Virus record (IMG/VR): IMGVR_UViG_3300010400_000002
Coordinates: 14,309 to 78,308 of that record
Source: a virus
Direction: 5' to 3' (one strand)
Length of the DNA stretch: 64,000 nucleotides
A program made the translations under genes and the position numbers. This document shows positions 13,738 to 57,487 of this stretch, piece after piece (within the stretch, counting starts at the first letter, position 1; each line of letters opens with the position of its first letter). The notes below the pieces were generated by a model that saw only the letters and a program-made list of their open reading frames with translations, was not told where the DNA came from and ran no database searches.

Positions 13738-16700
13738 TGCCAAATGGACAAGATATAAAATTACCAAAGGGAGCGACACTTGTTACTTCGCCTCCTGTGT
13801 CCGGCATTAAATTACCGAAAGGTGCAACGCTTATAAATAATAAATCCGATGAATCACAAGCGAAAGTGCCGCAAGTGCAAGAAGAAAAAAATGGTGTAAA
13901 TGCGCAACCAACAGACGCTACGGCAGCGAATAGCACTACGGAAGTACCGCAAAAAGAAAATAACAGCATTCCAAAAAATTTGGACAATCACATTAAGGCG
14001 CTTCAAAATGTTAAACAGAATATTAGCATCTACTCGCAATCAATTCCAAAGAATGCTCCATTAACATTACCTACCAAAGAACAAGAGGCGCAGATAGAAC
14101 CTGCAATTGTAGCAAGCGGAGGAAGAAATGCTACAATAGAGGATGATGGAAATATTATTGACTATAGTAAGCCAAACCAAATTACTCAGTGGGCACAATC
14201 GCAACTTGAAAAATTAAATGCGATTCCTGCATTTGATGGAACACCAACCGGAATGGGTATTCCTGATGTTACACCAATTACACCAATTATTGTTGCTGGT
14301 AAAGAAGTTGCAAAATCAATACTTGGAAGTATAAGCGGACTGGGCGAAGGAATTCAGCAGGCAACAAAAGGAAGTGAGGATATAAGAATACCATCTTCAC
14401 AAAATAGATTAGCTGCATTGGAACTTCCGGCAGGATTAGTAAAATCAGGATTTAGCGGATTAAGTTTGGTGGTGCCGCAAGTTGCTGCATTTAATCTTGG
14501 AATACAGGAAGCGGGAAATGTACTTCCTGAAAAATGGGTGCAAGCAGCGATGTCACCCGTGTCAACTATTTTGCAAGAAACACATGGCATAGTAAACTTC
14601 AATGGTAAAATTTATGATCTCGGAAATAGCGATGGAGTAAAGGCTGCTGCTGAATTAACTGACCTTGTATGGGATATATTTTTATTCAAGAAAGCGGAAG
14701 GGTTGGGTAAAAAGATAATTCATAATGAAGTTCTCACTCCTATTGAACAAGCTGAGGCGAATAAGATTATTGATGAAGGTATCAAAGATTTTGGAACACC
14801 ATTCAAGAAAGAAACTTTAAATAAAATTCCTCCTGAATTACCGGATGCAGTAAAGATAAAAGTTGCTCCATTGATTGAGGAGAAAGAAAAAATAATTGAT
14901 GGAAAGCAAAATATTGATGTTGGATTACATCAGTTAGAAGATCAAAAAATTGCTGACATCAATGAACAAATAATTGACCACGTTGCGCCACAACCATTTA
15001 CTGTTTCTGAATTTGAAGTTCACCCAAAAGAAAACATCTCTGCTGTTGTTGGTAAAGATGCTGAATACAAAGGAAAGATCGGTGTGATCGAAAAAGACGA
15101 TGAAGGCAATTTTGTTTTCAATGATGGCAAACGACAACAGATACTTCCGGTAGAAAATAAAGTAGAGCCGACAGAAACAATTTCCGACTCGGGATTGACA
15201 GTAGCCAAAGAGAAAATTTTCAAAGGAGAAATTCCGGTAATCGTGAAGCAAGGTGATGTTGAATATCGTAACAGGAAATACTTTGTATCGTTCACCAATG
15301 ATCCGAAAGATGCAACAGGAACGAGAGTATATGAATATACTAAGGACAAAAATTTACTTCCTGTTGGCAAGCCTAAAAAAGTCAATGAAATAATTCAACA
15401 GTTCAAAGACGAGAATGGAATTGCAACGAAGCAATCACCATTTGAATTTCCGAAGTCAAAAGAAGGAGAACCAACAATCTCAGAGGGTGACGGGACTGCT
15501 AAAGGGGAGTTGCAAGTTCCGTTATCCTCTGAACCTAAAACGACCGACAATGTTTCCGACAAACCACCAGTGTCAGATGAGCGACAACAGGAGTCAGCAC
15601 CAATCGGTGAAGCTCCCAGTGCCGAAACCGTCGTTAGCGAAGAGGTTAAAGCGCCGGAGGAAAAAGTAGATGAAGCCAAACAGTTCGCTATTGACATGGT
15701 GAACAATGATCTTGTTGAGCCAGGGAATACTTCTCGAAGTGAAATGACAATCAAGGGTAGTGGCAAGAAAGCAAGTGCGAACATCGAACCACGACTTGAC
15801 TTAGGAATGAGTAGTGCCGATAAGAACAAAGCTATTGCTGACATCAAAAAAGGAAACTACGAAACAGCACCAGCTAAGAAGTTAATTCAAAAGTTAAGTG
15901 AGTTCCATAAGAATGATGCGTTTGAGATGATACGCGGAACGGGTGGTAATGCTGATCGGTTTATGGAACTGACGCTCGAAGAAATGCGTCATCAGATTGA
16001 GGACATGAAAGAATTCAAGGCAGCCGAAGCCATGAAGGGAATACCGGATGAAGAAGCGCAGGCGATAGAAGATTTTGTCAGACCTTTTGAAGATGAGCAT
16101 GGAAACATTAATTTTGAGGAAGCGATAAAACATCTTGATGAAATCGGATGGACATTACCTGAAGGACATGAGGAAAGAATTTCGGACTTAATCAAAAAAA
16201 TAAAAGATGAAACAGGAAAGCGAGAAGTCCAAAAAGGCGAAGCAAATTCTTCTGGGTCTGTTAGCAGCGAAGCGCCGGAAGGAGTCATCAAAGATGAAAA
16301 GCCCCGCACAAGAGAACAAATCCTCCAAGAGTTAGAGCAGGCTAAAGCGGAGCACGCTACCGCAGAGAGTGACTACAACAAAGCCAAAGATGCTCTCGAC
16401 AAAAATCTACAAGGCAAGCAGGGTGATTTACTACAAGGTAATGAGCAGAAGTTGTTTGATGACACTTCTGAAATGAAGTCCAAAGCGGATGCAGCTAAGA
16501 AAACTCTTGACGCTGCAAAAGAAAAACTCGATGCCGCACAGAAGTTGGCTGATGATAATTTACCAGGGCAACAGGAGATACTTAGTCTTTCACATGGACT
16601 CACCCCTGAGCAAATAAATGAAAGTGCCCAATTCGTTGTTAAGTTTGAACGGGATGAATTACCTACCGATATAAAACTTGCAAAAGAACAACAAGAAAAA

Positions 16701-31743: not shown

Positions 31744-32145
31744 ATGGAGGAAGATCACTTAGAAGCAGCCGCGGCAGAAGAGAAATTTTCATTCGATCTT
31801 CTTTTGGCAGTGTTTCAGAAGTTGCCGGATGCGATAGTTATCCTTAATGAGGACAGAAAGATATTCAGGGTAAACCCACAGGCAGAGCTATTGTTTGGGT
31901 ATAATGAAATAGAATTAAAAAATAAACCCATTGAAATTCTTGTACCGGACTCACTGAAAGAACGCCACACTACGCATACTCAAACCTATGTAGATTCACC
32001 CTCATTACGTGCGATGGGAAGCGGTATTGAGTTGAAGGCAAAGAGAAAAAACGGAACAGAAATTCCTGTTGAAATAAATCTTAGTCCTGTGTCTACGGTT
32101 CGTGGTTTGTATGTGATTGCTGTAATCAGAAGAAAAGTAAAATAA
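31744..32145 (+). CDS. stand-alone PAS-domain protein (FixL-like)
   Basis: PDAIVILN..G-equivalent..VNPQAELLFGY..EL....IEILVP...RH...R.MG.G.EL.AKRKNG.EIPVEINLSP. Confidence 0.9.
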   Translation: MEEDHLEAAAAEEKFSFDLLLAVFQKLPDAIVILNEDRKIFRVNPQAELLFGYNEIELKNKPIEILVPDSLKERHTTHTQTYVDSPSLRAMGSGIELKAKRKNGTEIPVEINLSPVSTVRGLYVIAVIRRKVK

Positions 32146-33236: not shown

Positions 33237-33300
33237 ATTGAGGCAACTCAATCTGAAAGAGAAGTTTCTTTTGCTTCGGCGCAGTATCAATTCGGGGGGC

Positions 33301-33333
33301 AAAAAAAATGGATGATGTTTAGTCACCCATTTT
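33301..33333 (-). terminator. intrinsic terminator closing the RAMP/array transcript
   Basis: Minus strand AAAATGGGTGA-CTAAACA-TCATCCATTTT-TTTT; the stem is complete (one G-U) only on the minus strand. Confidence 0.75.
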
Positions 33334-33340
33334 AAACAGT

Positions 33341-33935
33341 ACCATAGCGGTGCGAACCCAACCATGCCAGCGCCTAACAGAACCATATCCAACAATACCG
33401 AGCCTTACACGATCACACCATACCGGCTTTCCAGCCCGTTCCATGCCATACCTCTACTTACATCAGCCAACCATACAGGACTAAAGCAAGCCATTGCTAA
33501 CCTATCCCGACCATACCGACTCTTTCGAGTCCGTACCCAACCGAACCATACCGAACACAAGCGAACCGCGCCGACGCCGAAGCTAACAATACCATTCCCG
33601 ATACTACCGCGCTCGACATAAGCTGACCAATCCATACCAAACCGGAGATAATTTTCCCGTTCCTTACCATACTCAACCGAACATTACCTAAGCCAGCCGT
33701 ACCCTGCATAACCGAAGCTGACCGAACCGACTGAAATTAATCAGTCCGTACCACGCCGTACACTACCATTCCAAACAAAATTGAACCGTATCCCGCCATG
33801 CCGAATCGAACCTTACCACAACACACGGAACACCACCATGCACTACCATACCGGCTTTTAAAAAGCCCGCACCAAACCAAAACTCAGCTAACCGGACAAA
33901 ACCGAACTCCACATAACCCCGCCCCGGCAAACCGG
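33341..33935 (-). ncRNA. array of six GGY-NN pentamer tracts separated by hairpins (putative gapped guide RNAs, VIPR-like)
   Basis: 103 in-phase pentamers by hand count, 55 with exact GGY and most others one mismatch away; tracts 33871-33935, 33750-33854, 33661-33730, 33535-33645, 33440-33519, 33341-33426; five junction hairpins. Confidence 0.85.
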
Positions 33936-33938
33936 AAT

Positions 33939-34565
33939 TTAATCTTCAATGACATCATAATTCTTAATAGCAAATCTTCCATATGACGGTCTGAAATCTC
34001 CAACGCCGCACAATCTTCCTGCCTGTACCAACGTGTCAATAAACAATGCCACATCAATATACTCAGGCAACTGAATCATGAATTGACATTTGCAAGTCCA
34101 TCCTGATTTTAATGCAGGACGAGTGCGATTAATGCCTGACCGCTGAATAACAACACGCCGACGATCTTCATAATCCCATTCTTTCTTTCCTAAAGAGCAA
34201 AGTGGAGTTAATGAGATTACTCCTGCTTTGAATAAGTCCATTGCCGACTTACGAGGCGAGCGAGGGTCTTGTTTGAACTTTGATGCAGCGATACAACTCA
34301 TGCGAAAATATTCACCCGGGATACAGAGAAATCCTTTATCATCCCGATAGACGTAGCTTTCGAGATCATCAGTTTTTTTAGCAGCAGAATTTTTTTTCGC
34401 TTTCGCTTTTTCATCTACTGCCTCTGCATTCCATCGGTGAAACAGCATGTCGGCTGTACCTTGAAATGTTACTTCAATCATGAACGGTTCTGAATGTTCA
34501 ATGACTTTCTTTGCGCCGTTTGTTGGCTCACTCACATTCTTAGCGAGTGTTTTTGCTGTACTCAT
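33939..34565 (-). CDS. solo RAMP/Cas7-like protein (Vipr-like)
   Basis: RAMP beta1 (MIEVTFQGTADMLFH), motif-II-like GFLCIPGEYFRMSCIAA, RTRP, C-terminal Gly-rich loop AGRLCGVGDFRPSYGRF. Confidence 0.8.
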   Translation of the reverse strand: MSTAKTLAKNVSEPTNGAKKVIEHSEPFMIEVTFQGTADMLFHRWNAEAVDEKAKAKKNSAAKKTDDLESYVYRDDKGFLCIPGEYFRMSCIAASKFKQDPRSPRKSAMDLFKAGVISLTPLCSLGKKEWDYEDRRRVVIQRSGINRTRPALKSGWTCKCQFMIQLPEYIDVALFIDTLVQAGRLCGVGDFRPSYGRFAIKNYDVIED

Positions 34566-34687: not shown

Positions 34688-34720
34688 CAAATATAAGGTG
34701 AGGGTATTACTAAATGCAAA
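34688..34720 (-). promoter_or_regulatory. Bacteroidota housekeeping-sigma promoter
   Basis: TTTG-N21-TATATTTG matches the -33/-7 consensus. Confidence 0.75.
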
Positions 34721-34827: not shown

Positions 34828-35424
34828 TTATATTTCAATTGAGTTATTCACTTCATTGCCTAATAAATCCCATCCCTCATATTCATAATTAGGGAACATT
34901 CCTTCACGTTCCCTTGCGAATAACTCCAATCGTTTAGGCTCTTCGAAAACCCTGTCAGTGACCTTCATTATCAATTCGCGGAAGTAATGCGGTTTCTGTG
35001 AGTGCTTACCAACTTTCTGTTCGTGAAGATCACCGAAGTCAAATTCCGAAGCATAGAAATTACAGGTTTGTTCTCTGAAGGCAGTAACATTTCCTTTAAT
35101 TCCTAATAGCAGATGTTCGCATTGACCACGAAACCAATATCCCATTCCCTGACTCATTACCTTTCGCCACGTCATCATTGTCTTATACTTAAATCCCCAC
35201 GCAGCCATTACCTCAAAGGCTTCCGGCAATAGCGGAACGGTTGCCCCTAAGAACAACACCGAATTTTTCTCAGAAGGAATTTGCATTGCCTTGATATCAT
35301 CAAGCGGCATCGTTTCATATTTTGTATGAGCGCCACTTCCTTCCGGCTGATCTCCATTAGTTCGCCCTGTCTTTTTATTCTCGTAAGACCACGGCGGATC
35401 TGCGTAAATGACATTGTACTTCAT
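34828..35424 (-). CDS. MT-A70 family N6-adenine methyltransferase
   Basis: VIYADPPW, WGFKYKT, GMGYWFRGQCEHLLLG, HSQKP, LELFAR. Confidence 0.9.
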   Translation of the reverse strand: MKYNVIYADPPWSYENKKTGRTNGDQPEGSGAHTKYETMPLDDIKAMQIPSEKNSVLFLGATVPLLPEAFEVMAAWGFKYKTMMTWRKVMSQGMGYWFRGQCEHLLLGIKGNVTAFREQTCNFYASEFDFGDLHEQKVGKHSQKPHYFRELIMKVTDRVFEEPKRLELFAREREGMFPNYEYEGWDLLGNEVNNSIEI

Positions 35425-35640: not shown

Positions 35641-36378
35641 CTAACACACTTTCTTCTGAACATGAATACCATAAGAGTCCGTTATTTTATGGCATGGCTT
35701 ACATAATGTTAATCCGTTATCCACATCCCATAATAACTTACAGGAAAGAGCATCAATAGTGTCCTTCAAATTGAATTGATAGATAATATTTGCTAAACTT
35801 ATTTTATGATGGCATTCCAACCTAACATTATTTTTACCACAGTTTTGGCAAGTGAAATTATCTCTCTTATAAACACTCAATCTCCATTGATTATATTCAA
35901 CCAATCTTCTTATCTTATCTTTAATAATATTAAACCCTTTTCCCTTCCCATATCTCCAATGATTCGTTCCGCTAATTCTAAGCCTCGCTTCTAAAGTATA
36001 CTTTTTGTTTCGGGTGAACGCCTTTCCTTTCATAAAGGCACTGTGCGCTGGTCTCTGTCTACCTAATTTAAAAACATGATAGCATTGTTGAGAACAGAAT
36101 TTTCTTTTTAGTGATTTGGAAAATTTAATATCTCTATTACAGATGGAGCATTTTGATTTCACCTTTCCTTTTCCAAAATCATTAGTCATACATATGACGT
36201 CACAATATATCCGCTTACATTTCTTTTTACAGTACCTACAATTATTTAGAATAGTTATCTTTCTTTTTCTTCTTTTTCTTATTCTTGAGCATGTTTCCGA
36301 ACAAGTTGTTCTGTTATTAAGTTGACATGGAAATACTTTGAATGGTGCATTACAAACAATACAGTTCTTAGTAATCAT
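35641..36378 (-). CDS. HNH endonuclease with Zn-ribbon repeats
   Basis: Start MITKNC; CxxC repeats; WRLSVYKRDNFTCQNCG...LECHH...NGLTLCKPCH. Confidence 0.85.
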   Translation of the reverse strand: MITKNCIVCNAPFKVFPCQLNNRTTCSETCSRIRKRRKRKITILNNCRYCKKKCKRIYCDVICMTNDFGKGKVKSKCSICNRDIKFSKSLKRKFCSQQCYHVFKLGRQRPAHSAFMKGKAFTRNKKYTLEARLRISGTNHWRYGKGKGFNIIKDKIRRLVEYNQWRLSVYKRDNFTCQNCGKNNVRLECHHKISLANIIYQFNLKDTIDALSCKLLWDVDNGLTLCKPCHKITDSYGIHVQKKVC

Positions 36379-36379
36379 C

Positions 36380-36505
36380 TTAAAAAAGATAGCCGCTGGC
36401 AATGGTGGCTTATCAACACAATCCGTAGGGAAGGAGTTGCACCAAAGCAGCGGCGTTTTTTGTTGAAGATGTTCATGGATTGAATTGATAAGCATTGCAA
36501 ATTTA
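36380..36505 (-). promoter_or_regulatory. promoter box and structured leader of the HNH gene
   Basis: TAAATTTG (36498-36505); interleaved pairings GCTTATCAA/TTGATAAGC and GCCGCTG/CAGCGGC. Confidence 0.5.
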
Positions 36506-42454: not shown

Positions 42455-42459
42455 TTCGA

Positions 42460-42543
42460 AGCGAAGGGGGAACTCGAATCCCCGACCTATGCAGACCCAC
42501 TCCACGTAGAAACTGCGTCGCTCTACCAACTGAGCTACTTCGC
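42460..42543 (-). tRNA. tRNA-like RNA with aberrant extended anticodon arm (identity unassignable)
   Basis: Acceptor GCGAAG/CTTCGC, D-arm GCTCAGTTGGTAGAGC, T-arm GGGGATTCGAGTTCCC; 18 nt enclosed by GCAG/CTGC; no CCA. Confidence 0.65.
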
Positions 42544-42780
42544 TACAGGTTAGCTTTGCCTGTATTCATCAGAGAGTTTCCTTCTCCTCACTTTCAACGT
42601 TACAGGTGACGCGCCTTGCTTACATGAGTTCGCTTCGGACTCCATCCAATCTTACGATTGCTCATACGGAAAAAATCTTTAAAAAGAAGGATGCGAATGG
42701 TCACGGCAAAACTGTAATCTGTTCGCTGCAGTCGCACCCTCAACCGGAGTGCTTAACCTCCGGTGTATGGTTTGTAAGTT

Positions 42781-53411: not shown

Positions 53412-54272
53412 TTAATCCTTCGTCTGCTCCTTTTCTAATTCTGCACAACGAATAATATCTTTCATCGCCACTTCATTTGTTTCATAGAAACGTGGTGGGG
53501 CAACTTCAATCGGTGAAGATGCTCTGTAAATTTGTTGCGCGGCAAATGCCGGGGAGGTTGCACGTTCTAATTCATTACCTTCTTTCCCTGCAAGATGGTT
53601 TATCCATCCGGCGCGACAATGTGTAGTATCACAAGTATGCCATGTGGACATATTTAATTGGTTGCCGTTATCCTGAATGGCTTCCAATAATTTTTGGTGA
53701 ATATTTGGAATAACGGGAACCGGAACGCCTCCGATGTAGATACGATTTGGAATAGATTCTTTTTCCTGTGGTGCATCTTGTTCGACTGGGCGAGCGTTTT
53801 TTAAATCACTGCAACCACTGCAACGACTGCAATCACTGCAACGACTGCAACCACTGCAACGACTGCAATCACTGCAACCACTGCAATCACTGCAACGACT
53901 GCAATCACTGCAACCACTGCAATCACTGCAATCACTGCAACCACTGCAATCACTGCAACGACTGCAATCACTGCAACCACTGCAATCACTGCAACCACTG
54001 CAATCACTGCAACCACTGCAACCACTGCAATCACTGCAACCACTGCAATCACTGCAACCACTGCAATCACTGCAACCACTGCAACGACTGCAATCACTGC
54101 AACGACTGCAATCACTGCAACCACTGCAATCACTGCAATTCCAACAGCCTTTGTTATACTTATTTTCTTTCTCCCAATTCGGATTTACTTCAGCAAATTC
54201 AGGAGAAACCCCATTCACATCTTTATCGGAACGGTCAATAAACTCTGAGTAATCTTTGAAAATTTTTGTCAT
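53412..54272 (-). CDS. Cys-repeat protein with WHTCDTTHCRAGW C-terminal domain
   Basis: Start MTKIFK; 37 x CS(D/G/R); LNMSTWHTCDTTHCRAGW. Confidence 0.7.
   Translation of the reverse strand: MTKIFKDYSEFIDRSDKDVNGVSPEFAEVNPNWEKENKYNKGCWNCSDCSGCSDCSRCSDCSRCSGCSDCSGCSDCSGCSDCSGCSGCSDCSGCSDCSGCSDCSRCSDCSGCSDCSDCSGCSDCSRCSDCSGCSDCSRCSGCSRCSDCSRCSGCSDLKNARPVEQDAPQEKESIPNRIYIGGVPVPVIPNIHQKLLEAIQDNGNQLNMSTWHTCDTTHCRAGWINHLAGKEGNELERATSPAFAAQQIYRASSPIEVAPPRFYETNEVAMKDIIRCAELEKEQTKD
53805..54137 (-). repeat. 9-bp tandem repeat x37, TGCAGT(GAT/GGT/CGT)
   Basis: 333 bp with only three unit variants. Confidence 0.95.
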
Positions 54273-57307: not shown

Positions 57308-57487
57308 TCAAGATGCCAATACCAAAGGTTTGACCTTGCGCCCCCGTTTACGTCCCGAACTTATACCATTGTCACGCATGCGTTTCCTCAGTGTATTTAA
57401 CGATATACCCAATTTTCCGGCTACTTGGGACATGCTTAAATTAGGATTGGAAGCAATAGCCTTTTGAATGATCTCGGTGTCTGACAT
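57308..57487 (-). CDS. small HTH DNA-binding protein
   Basis: LSMSQVAGKLGISLNTLRKRM plus basic tail GRKRGRK. Confidence 0.7.
   Translation of the reverse strand: MSDTEIIQKAIASNPNLSMSQVAGKLGISLNTLRKRMRDNGISSGRKRGRKVKPLVLAS

Follow-up and report, generated by a model that had tools for sequence, protein, structure and literature searches.

A predicted phage VIPR guide matches the HTH_17 gene of integrase-bearing defence islands in Flavobacteriaceae

[quoted passage not shown] According to these preprints, Vipr protomers polymerise on vrRNAs that consist of GGY/NN repeats, and transcription of competing mobile elements is silenced as a result. The NN positions base-pair with double-stranded DNA while one target base is skipped per unit (bioRxiv 10.64898/2026.04.26.720920), and the skipped base is usually the wobble position of a codon. 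The published systems work on either strand of double-stranded DNA, and a match of at least 80% of the NN bases was used as the target threshold. Seven types have been published, and the type II system of Escherichia phage SUSP1 is used as the reference. In SUSP1, vrRNA4 silences the excision recombinase of the F5 satellite at near-invariant codon positions and thereby immobilises the satellite (bioRxiv 10.64898/2026.10.15.759431).

Filaments of class 1 CRISPR Cas7/Csm3 proteins have in common with VIPR an RRM fold with a G-loop and a thumb, one protomer per guide unit and periodic base flipping. However, VIPR has a period of 5 nt (two paired, three sequestered), whereas the Cas7 period is 6 nt (five paired), and VIPR works without CRISPR repeats, adaptation genes or a nuclease. 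The lytic phage ICP1 likewise aims an RNA-guided system, its CRISPR-Cas, at a chromosomal phage-responsive island, the PLE. ICP1 uses a complete type I-F system with contiguous spacers and cuts the DNA, whereas VIPR silences with gapped guides.

The locus analysed here lies in a stretch of 64,000 nucleotides, hereafter the window (positions 14,309 to 78,308 of the IMG/VR record IMGVR_UViG_3300010400_000002), which belongs to an uncultured 78-kb phage; the coordinates of its features are collected in Table 1. With phmmer, the predicted Vipr protein (P0001) matched the SUSP1 Vipr protein (PDB 36pp_D) with an E-value of 3e-5 over its C-terminal third, and a profile of 30 P0001 homologues was needed for a full-length match (E = 1.4e-10), in which positions 30-200 of 207 aligned to residues 5-188 of 202. 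The similarity to the reference protein is thus low at the sequence level. The best Foldseek matches of the AF2 model of P0001 (pLDDT 78.6) were Csm3/Cas7 chains, 94 of them at E<=1e-3. The protein also matches phrog_4652, and no Pfam or PADLOC family was found for it. In SUSP1 Vipr, the residues H17, K33, R138, D177, W178 and R179 hold G1, G2, Y3 and the skipped base (VIPR preprints). Five of these, H17, K33, R138, D177 and R179, align to H43, K58, R149, D190 and R192 of P0001, which are invariant in the 30 homologues, and W178 aligns to F191, which is nearly invariant in the same set and keeps the aromatic ring.

Relatives of Vipr are encoded in 395 IMG/VR stretches. Among the best 80 of these, in a survey of relatives more distant than the closest ones (72-85% identity), 73 carry a GGY array with a period of 5 on the same strand as vipr, close to the gene on either side, and none carries one on the opposite strand; shuffled sequences reached at most 6 of 12 units. 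Because of the Vipr homology, the conserved GGY-contact residues and the same-strand arrays of the relatives, the locus is, as far as sequence can tell, a VIPR system. It has in common with SUSP1 that it is phage-encoded, with a lone RAMP-like Vipr gene, a GGY/NN array on the same strand, a structured 3' element for each guide, natural targets that follow the 1-nt skip with the wobble skipped, and no self-targeting. It differs from SUSP1 in that the tails are short hairpins of variable sequence, whereas those of SUSP1 are pseudoknots, and in that no vap gene was recognised: when the 10 neighbouring genes were compared with the 80 vipr relatives, the sole recurrence was one DUF1064 match. The gene directly upstream of vipr encodes an MT-A70 DNA methyltransferase (PF05063, E = 5e-19), and the second gene upstream encodes a protein of 284 aa that matches HNH_2 weakly; in the 80 relatives, neither of them is conserved beside vipr. 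With megablast, a 12-kb part of the phage had no match among GenBank phages.

Table 1 Positions of the features in the window and in the target loci.
Feature	Sequence	Positions	Strand	Details
vipr gene	window	33939..34565	-	208 aa (P0001); RAMP/Cas7-like guide-binding protein by homology and fold
vrRNA array	window	33341..33935	-	six GGY/NN pentamer tracts separated by hairpins; begins 3 nt past the vipr stop
Tract 1 guide	window	33871..33935	-	13 NN; 26/26 against the 3' end of DUF2188 genes in IMG/VR contigs
Tract 3 guide	window	33661..33725	-	13 NN; 24/26 against the HExxH site of a Peptidase_M78 gene in IMG/VR
Tract 4/5 hairpin, tail of tract 4	window	33513..33536	-	dG -12.4 kcal/mol, z -5.2; 0/200 shuffles as good
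Tract 5 guide region	window	33440..33514	-	15 NN dinucleotides; 29/30 against codons 61-75 of the island HTH_17 gene, 1-nt skip rule
Tract 5 vrRNA 3' hairpin (tail)	window	33422..33439	-	GAAA loop; dG -8.8 kcal/mol, z -2.5
Hairpin with U8, likely end of the vipr-array transcript	window	33301..33333	-	fold of 33280-33345: dG -13.3, z -2.0
Promoter-like motif, Bacteroidota type (TTTG-N21-TAnnTTTG)	window	34688..34720	-	upstream of vipr; weak
Phase slip in tract 4	window	33571-33580		
Phase slip in tract 6	window	33366-33376		
MT-A70 DNA methyltransferase gene	window	34828-35424	-	
Gene of 284-aa protein	window	35641-36495	-	
PAS protein gene	window	31744-32145	+	
tRNA	window	42458-42544	-	
Tandem repeat	window	53807-54139		
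HTH_17-like ORF of the phage	window	57332-57439	-	G000:C1:71640-71747
Boundary motif, about 45 nt	L006	4123-4170		
Boundary motif, about 45 nt	L012	3751-3795		
Boundary motif, about 45 nt	L015	1591-1635		
Boundary motif, about 45 nt	L062	18856-18900	-	
Conserved 132 nt upstream of the HTH_17 gene	L006	2751-2882		
Conserved 132 nt upstream of the HTH_17 gene	L012	2379-2510		
Conserved 132 nt upstream of the HTH_17 gene	L024	2938-3069		
Tract 1 target gene	L147	4887-5108		
Tract 1 target gene	L155	1159-1386		
Tract 3 target gene	L158	4817-6040		also on L156 and L157

Three further features of the window were recorded. ARAGORN reported a tRNA whose anticodon has four bases (tcta) and to which it assigned no amino acid; this could be a phage tRNA of the suppressor or frameshift type. 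A tandem repeat of the CACTGCAAC type, with an 18-nt unit (63-nt super-unit), 18 copies and 94% matches, is probably a repetitive coding region. A stand-alone PAS protein of 133 aa (PF00989, E = 4e-13) is encoded among the small genes that end the + strand block.

A 5-nt rhythm runs through the whole of the array, whose units read GGY-NN on the - strand. About half of the units have the exact GGY scaffold and the rest are degenerate (xGY or GxY), a further difference from SUSP1; 12-13 of 13-16 units have a pyrimidine at the third position, and the guides are 13-21 units long. The five hairpins between the tracts have dG values of -6.8 to -12.4 kcal/mol, two of them with GAAA loops, and they have common flanks (ACGG...CCGGU, or ACCG...CCGT on the + strand) around stems that differ. 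At two places, one extra C (GCC-NN-C-GCC) shifts the phase and splits tracts 4 and 6, respectively; these slips may separate distinct guides or correspond to a 2-nt skip. Tandem Repeats Finder did not detect the array because the NN positions vary, and the Rfam search gave noise only and no family. The hairpin with U8 behind the array was not called by a consensus terminator scan because its stem is AU-rich. The Bacteroidota promoter motif, of which one copy lies upstream of vipr, occurs three times in the window against 2.4 expected by chance and is thus not enriched.

The tract 5 stretch reads on the + strand (33440-33519) as 16 pentamers, each with a C-rich triplet (mostly ACC) followed by NN, with C at both scaffold positions in 12 and 13 of the 16 units, by phase. 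When re-parsed, its dinucleotides were AT AT TC TT TC CA AT GG AA AA AT TA TA CG AT GA, exactly the list of an earlier note that had been made from the letters alone. The earlier note had counted all 16 units into the tract; 15 of them stand as the guide, and the last, with the dinucleotide GA, falls away because this unit (33515-33519) shares bases with the stem of the adjacent hairpin. Exact GGY occurs in 7 of the 16 units, similar to the other tracts, and the scaffolds of tracts 1 and 3 are as degenerate as that of tract 5, yet both have near-perfect targets.

For the target search, a core pattern of 12 NN (24 specified bases) was used, which has a chance of 4^-24 per position and an expectation well below 1. 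Exact matches numbered 17 in metagenome contigs and 8 in species-representative genomes. All 25 lie in frame in one 94-aa HTH_17 gene, at the motif SFSQIGNKIYYR. Its protein runs ...WRDEGKISFSQIGNKIYYRMSD..., except in three metagenome contigs and one genome, where GVVSF... or RAISF... stands instead. The motif that the earlier note had predicted from the dinucleotides fits the real G(K/V/I)(I/V)SFSQIG(N/S)KIYYR. The same note had expected this pattern search to give in-frame matches in HTH_17 genes near tyrosine integrases, and all 25 lay in frame in the HTH_17 gene (PF12728), with a tyrosine integrase nearby in most loci examined; the best matches fell neither outside HTH_17 genes nor at chance level. 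With the full guide of 15 units, the best match was 29/30, in which 14 consecutive dinucleotides are exact and the sole miss is in the tail-proximal unit, where the guide has AT and the target AA. Exact patterns of 16 NN and 10 NN gave no match in IMG/VR, and the exact 14-NN pattern from unit 1 gave none in the species-representative genomes because unit 1 mismatches. A 30/30 target was not found in the databases searched.

Since a search with exact patterns selects its own matches, we countered this bias by searching 401 genomes of Flavobacteriaceae with the protein itself, and the guide was then scored on the 30 best loci. The match was 29/30 in orthologues with 94-100% identity, 22-27/30 in homologues with 57-73% identity (SFSQIGSKIYYR; 12 of 13 loci at 26-27), and 20-25/30 at 39-49% identity, with a background of 18-21/30 below that range. 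A pattern search that allowed up to 3 mismatches in the same 401 genomes hit 9 genomes, with one site each and always in the target gene. The wobble bases differ freely between the target loci. Among the 16 closest homologues of the unbiased set, the footprint is conserved to 89% and 95% at codon positions 1 and 2, and to 67.5% at the skipped wobble. This codon logic is the published 1-nt skip rule of VIPR and not a new mechanism. In the phage itself, no site with up to 3 mismatches was found in the 78-kb genome, and the best tract 5 match in the window (19/30) was below the null mean of shuffled guides (19.75). The phage has a weak HTH_17-like ORF of its own (17.7 bits, below the cut-off), and tract 5 does not match it (best 18/30).

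The target protein scores 37.4 bits against HTH_17 (cut-off 27) over residues 37-85. Against the excisionase family TIGR01764 of NCBIfam it reaches 17.6 bits, below the cut-off of 28.8, and its matches to PHROG families named "excisionase and transcriptional regulator" are weak (E from 3e-5 to 1e-3). We therefore use "excisionase-like" as a reading of the gene and not as a result, although its place beside the integrase fits such a role without proving it. With respect to the earlier note, which had named the excisionase of a resident integrative element or satellite as the target, the HTH_17 gene beside an integrase was borne out, while the excisionase label goes further than the TIGR01764 score. 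The integrative element was supported by the surroundings of the gene. In most loci examined, the order is a tyrosine integrase, a protein of 401-681 aa without assigned function, the HTH_17 gene, about 50 nt, and a protein of about 300 aa. The integrase is of the Bacteroidota type, with Arm-DNA-bind_5, Phage_int_SAM_5 (SAM_5) and Phage_integrase domains. The model of the ~300-aa protein (pLDDT 87) resembles the rolling-circle initiators RepDE and RepD (Foldseek E = 1.5e-8, TM about 0.5-0.57), and a language-model (Atlas) look-up led to Phage_CRI/G2P clusters, which we take as a lead only.

Behind this module, the islands carry variable cargo, which includes type I and type III R-M systems, PHP-AAA, GmrSD, Fic, HipA-like kinases, a deaminase, and an Eco57I-type methylase with a PLD-SNF2 helicase. 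Immediately behind the Rep-like gene, at the border of core and cargo, four of the five island loci examined have a motif of about 45 nt with a small hairpin (AGAC...GTCT), which may serve as a terminator or be a hotspot of recombination. The 132 nt upstream of the HTH_17 gene are also conserved and contain a perfect palindrome, GGGTTATATAACCC, which may be the operator of the island excision/replication operon. No virion genes were seen in the island stretches read, and around the one island examined for its ends (G002) there were neither att-like direct repeats of at least 14 bp nor a flanking tRNA. The genomes with the 12-NN core are those of Polaribacter marinus, Winogradskyella algicola, W. 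ursingii, W. pacifica and Mariniflexile maritimum, together with Nonlabens and Tenacibaculum MAGs and one Bacteroidia MAG. Close orthologues (at least 57% identity) are present in 16 of the 401 Flavobacteriaceae genomes, and HTH_17 homologues overall in 126, in several contexts. Taken together, we read the target as part of the putative excision/replication module of an integrative island with defence cargo in marine Flavobacteriaceae. In line with the suggestion of the earlier note that a near-perfect match might name the host, the matches point to a host group, the Flavobacteriaceae, with 29/30 as the best match and not a perfect one.

The pair of tract 5 and its target resembles SUSP1 vrRNA4 and F5 in that the guide lies on near-invariant codon positions of an excision-module gene of an integrative element, while the wobbles vary. 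It differs in the gene itself, a recombinase in F5 and here a small Xis-like gene (HTH_17) that precedes a rolling-circle Rep. Compared with the F5 satellite, the island carries defence cargo and showed no virion or packaging genes in the stretches examined.

Two other guides of the array have near-perfect targets, both in IMG/VR contigs (25-52 kb). The target of tract 1 is a 74-aa DUF2188 gene (PF09954, 86.8 bits) whose 3' end reads ...KNSYGNDPYPPKG-stop; the 10-NN core of this tract occurs in ten IMG/VR contigs, and its target contigs are 35-52 kb long. The target of tract 3, on three contigs, is a 408-aa protein with HTH and Peptidase_M78 domains (ImmA/IrrE-like), at the HExxH site LMHELYHVLYD. 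For tracts 2, 4 and 6, no targets were found in the island loci, IMG/VR or the target-bearing genomes, and the 10-NN cores (20 bases) of tracts 2, 4b and 6b had no match in IMG/VR. Against the island loci, none of the other tracts gave anything above the shuffled controls, and tracts 1, 3 and 4b had no sites in five target-bearing genomes. The guides of the array do not converge on one element. Likewise, the guides of the 80 related VIPR loci matched the island loci at no more than 20/24, which is chance level, and showed no convergent targeting. The vrRNAs of tracts 1, 3 and 5 are all complementary to the sense strand of their targets; three of three in one orientation (p = 0.25) is not significant.

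We consider it probable that tract 5 is a phage VIPR vrRNA guide against the HTH_17 gene of the islands, whose binding most likely blocks the transcription of HTH_17 and Rep. In this mechanism, the - strand would be transcribed from vipr through the array, and Vipr protomers would each bind one GGY unit and present the 15 NN dinucleotides. The dinucleotides would pair with double-stranded target DNA two bases at a time, with the third base, the wobble, skipped, and the Vipr filament would form a gapped R-loop over codons 61-75, which encode the conserved wing with SFSQIGNKIYYR, and block RNA polymerase. Both genes would be affected because the site, in the last third of the HTH_17 gene, is upstream of Rep, and the gap of 50 nt between them has no recognisable promoter. 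With HTH_17 and Rep blocked, the island would stay integrated as a single copy, with neither excision nor replication during infection. Such a silencing of the island module would parallel that of the satellite excision recombinase by the SUSP1 VIPR. Expression, RNP formation, DNA binding, silencing and the biological outcome are all drawn here from the published VIPR systems and would have to proceed as they do there.

It is unlikely, in our view, that the guide is real but has its true target elsewhere, in another mobile element of the phage's own host, such as a satellite or prophage, with an HTH_17 gene that shares the wing motif with Ile instead of Lys as the first codon, so that the Flavobacteriaceae islands would be its nearest relatives in the databases. 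The first guide dinucleotide, AT, mismatches every match (AA, GT or GC), which would agree with this possibility, as would the spread of HTH_17 homologues over several contexts. The single DNA run that is listed for the phage contig, which may be the source sample, is labelled soil metagenome, whereas most target matches are marine. Against it, every site of at least 26/30 among the scored homologue loci belongs to a close homologue of the one 94-aa gene, the neighbourhood of integrase, HTH_17 and ~300-aa protein recurs wherever flanks were examined, and the published threshold of at least 80% NN match is comfortably exceeded.

The main effect could also lie further downstream, if binding at HTH_17 acted as a polar roadblock that shuts off the cargo, so that one guide would disarm the defences of many islands. 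VIPR silences by blocking transcription, and in every locus examined the cargo is downstream of the target and co-oriented with it. However, the conserved hairpin-containing boundary follows Rep, and gaps of 100-440 nt precede the cargo, some with a separate small HTH gene and promoter-like motifs; therefore, the cargo probably has its own promoters, and we give this variant a small probability. Still less probable is an antisense mechanism, in which the vrRNA would address the HTH_17 mRNA and not DNA. The common orientation of tracts 1, 3 and 5 would suit an antisense action, but three of three would arise by chance at the p-value given above, and the published systems bind double-stranded DNA on either strand. 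Finally, that a G-poor repeat decodes to a protein-like string by chance, for which nothing speaks beyond the general risk of post hoc decoding, is refuted by the controls and has a negligible probability, as the 25 exact 24-base matches lie in one gene and frame where far fewer than one was expected, the pattern read backwards had no site in the 401 Flavobacteriaceae genomes, and on the target loci no shuffled guide scored above 22/32, where the real one scored 29/32.

Systems of this kind are already in the literature; the specific contribution of this locus is the HTH_17/Rep module of Flavobacteriaceae defence islands, which we take as the tract 5 target. The main texts of the discovery paper and of the October 2026 paper do not mention a marine-type Flavobacteriaceae phage lineage, and the supplementary file of the discovery paper (PMC copy) contains none of the terms Flavobacter, Bacteroid or Winogradskyella. 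The match of tract 5 confirms the VIPR 1-nt skip rule independently and in silico and provides, through the target, a host prediction for an uncultured phage, and the 44-bp footprint is a guide-target pair that is ready for experiments. It also gives VIPR a named natural target, a Xis-like HTH_17 gene that would head the excision/replication module of integrase-bearing islands loaded with anti-phage genes, and so links VIPR to the conflict with mobile defence islands. As a more speculative and rather doubtful extension, the islands may be an undescribed family of phage-responsive, satellite-like mobile defence elements of Flavobacteriaceae, which a single wobble-proof guide would pin in the chromosome by silencing the excision-replication operon. 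If this is true, the phage would use RNA guidance to counter mobile immunity in marine Bacteroidota.
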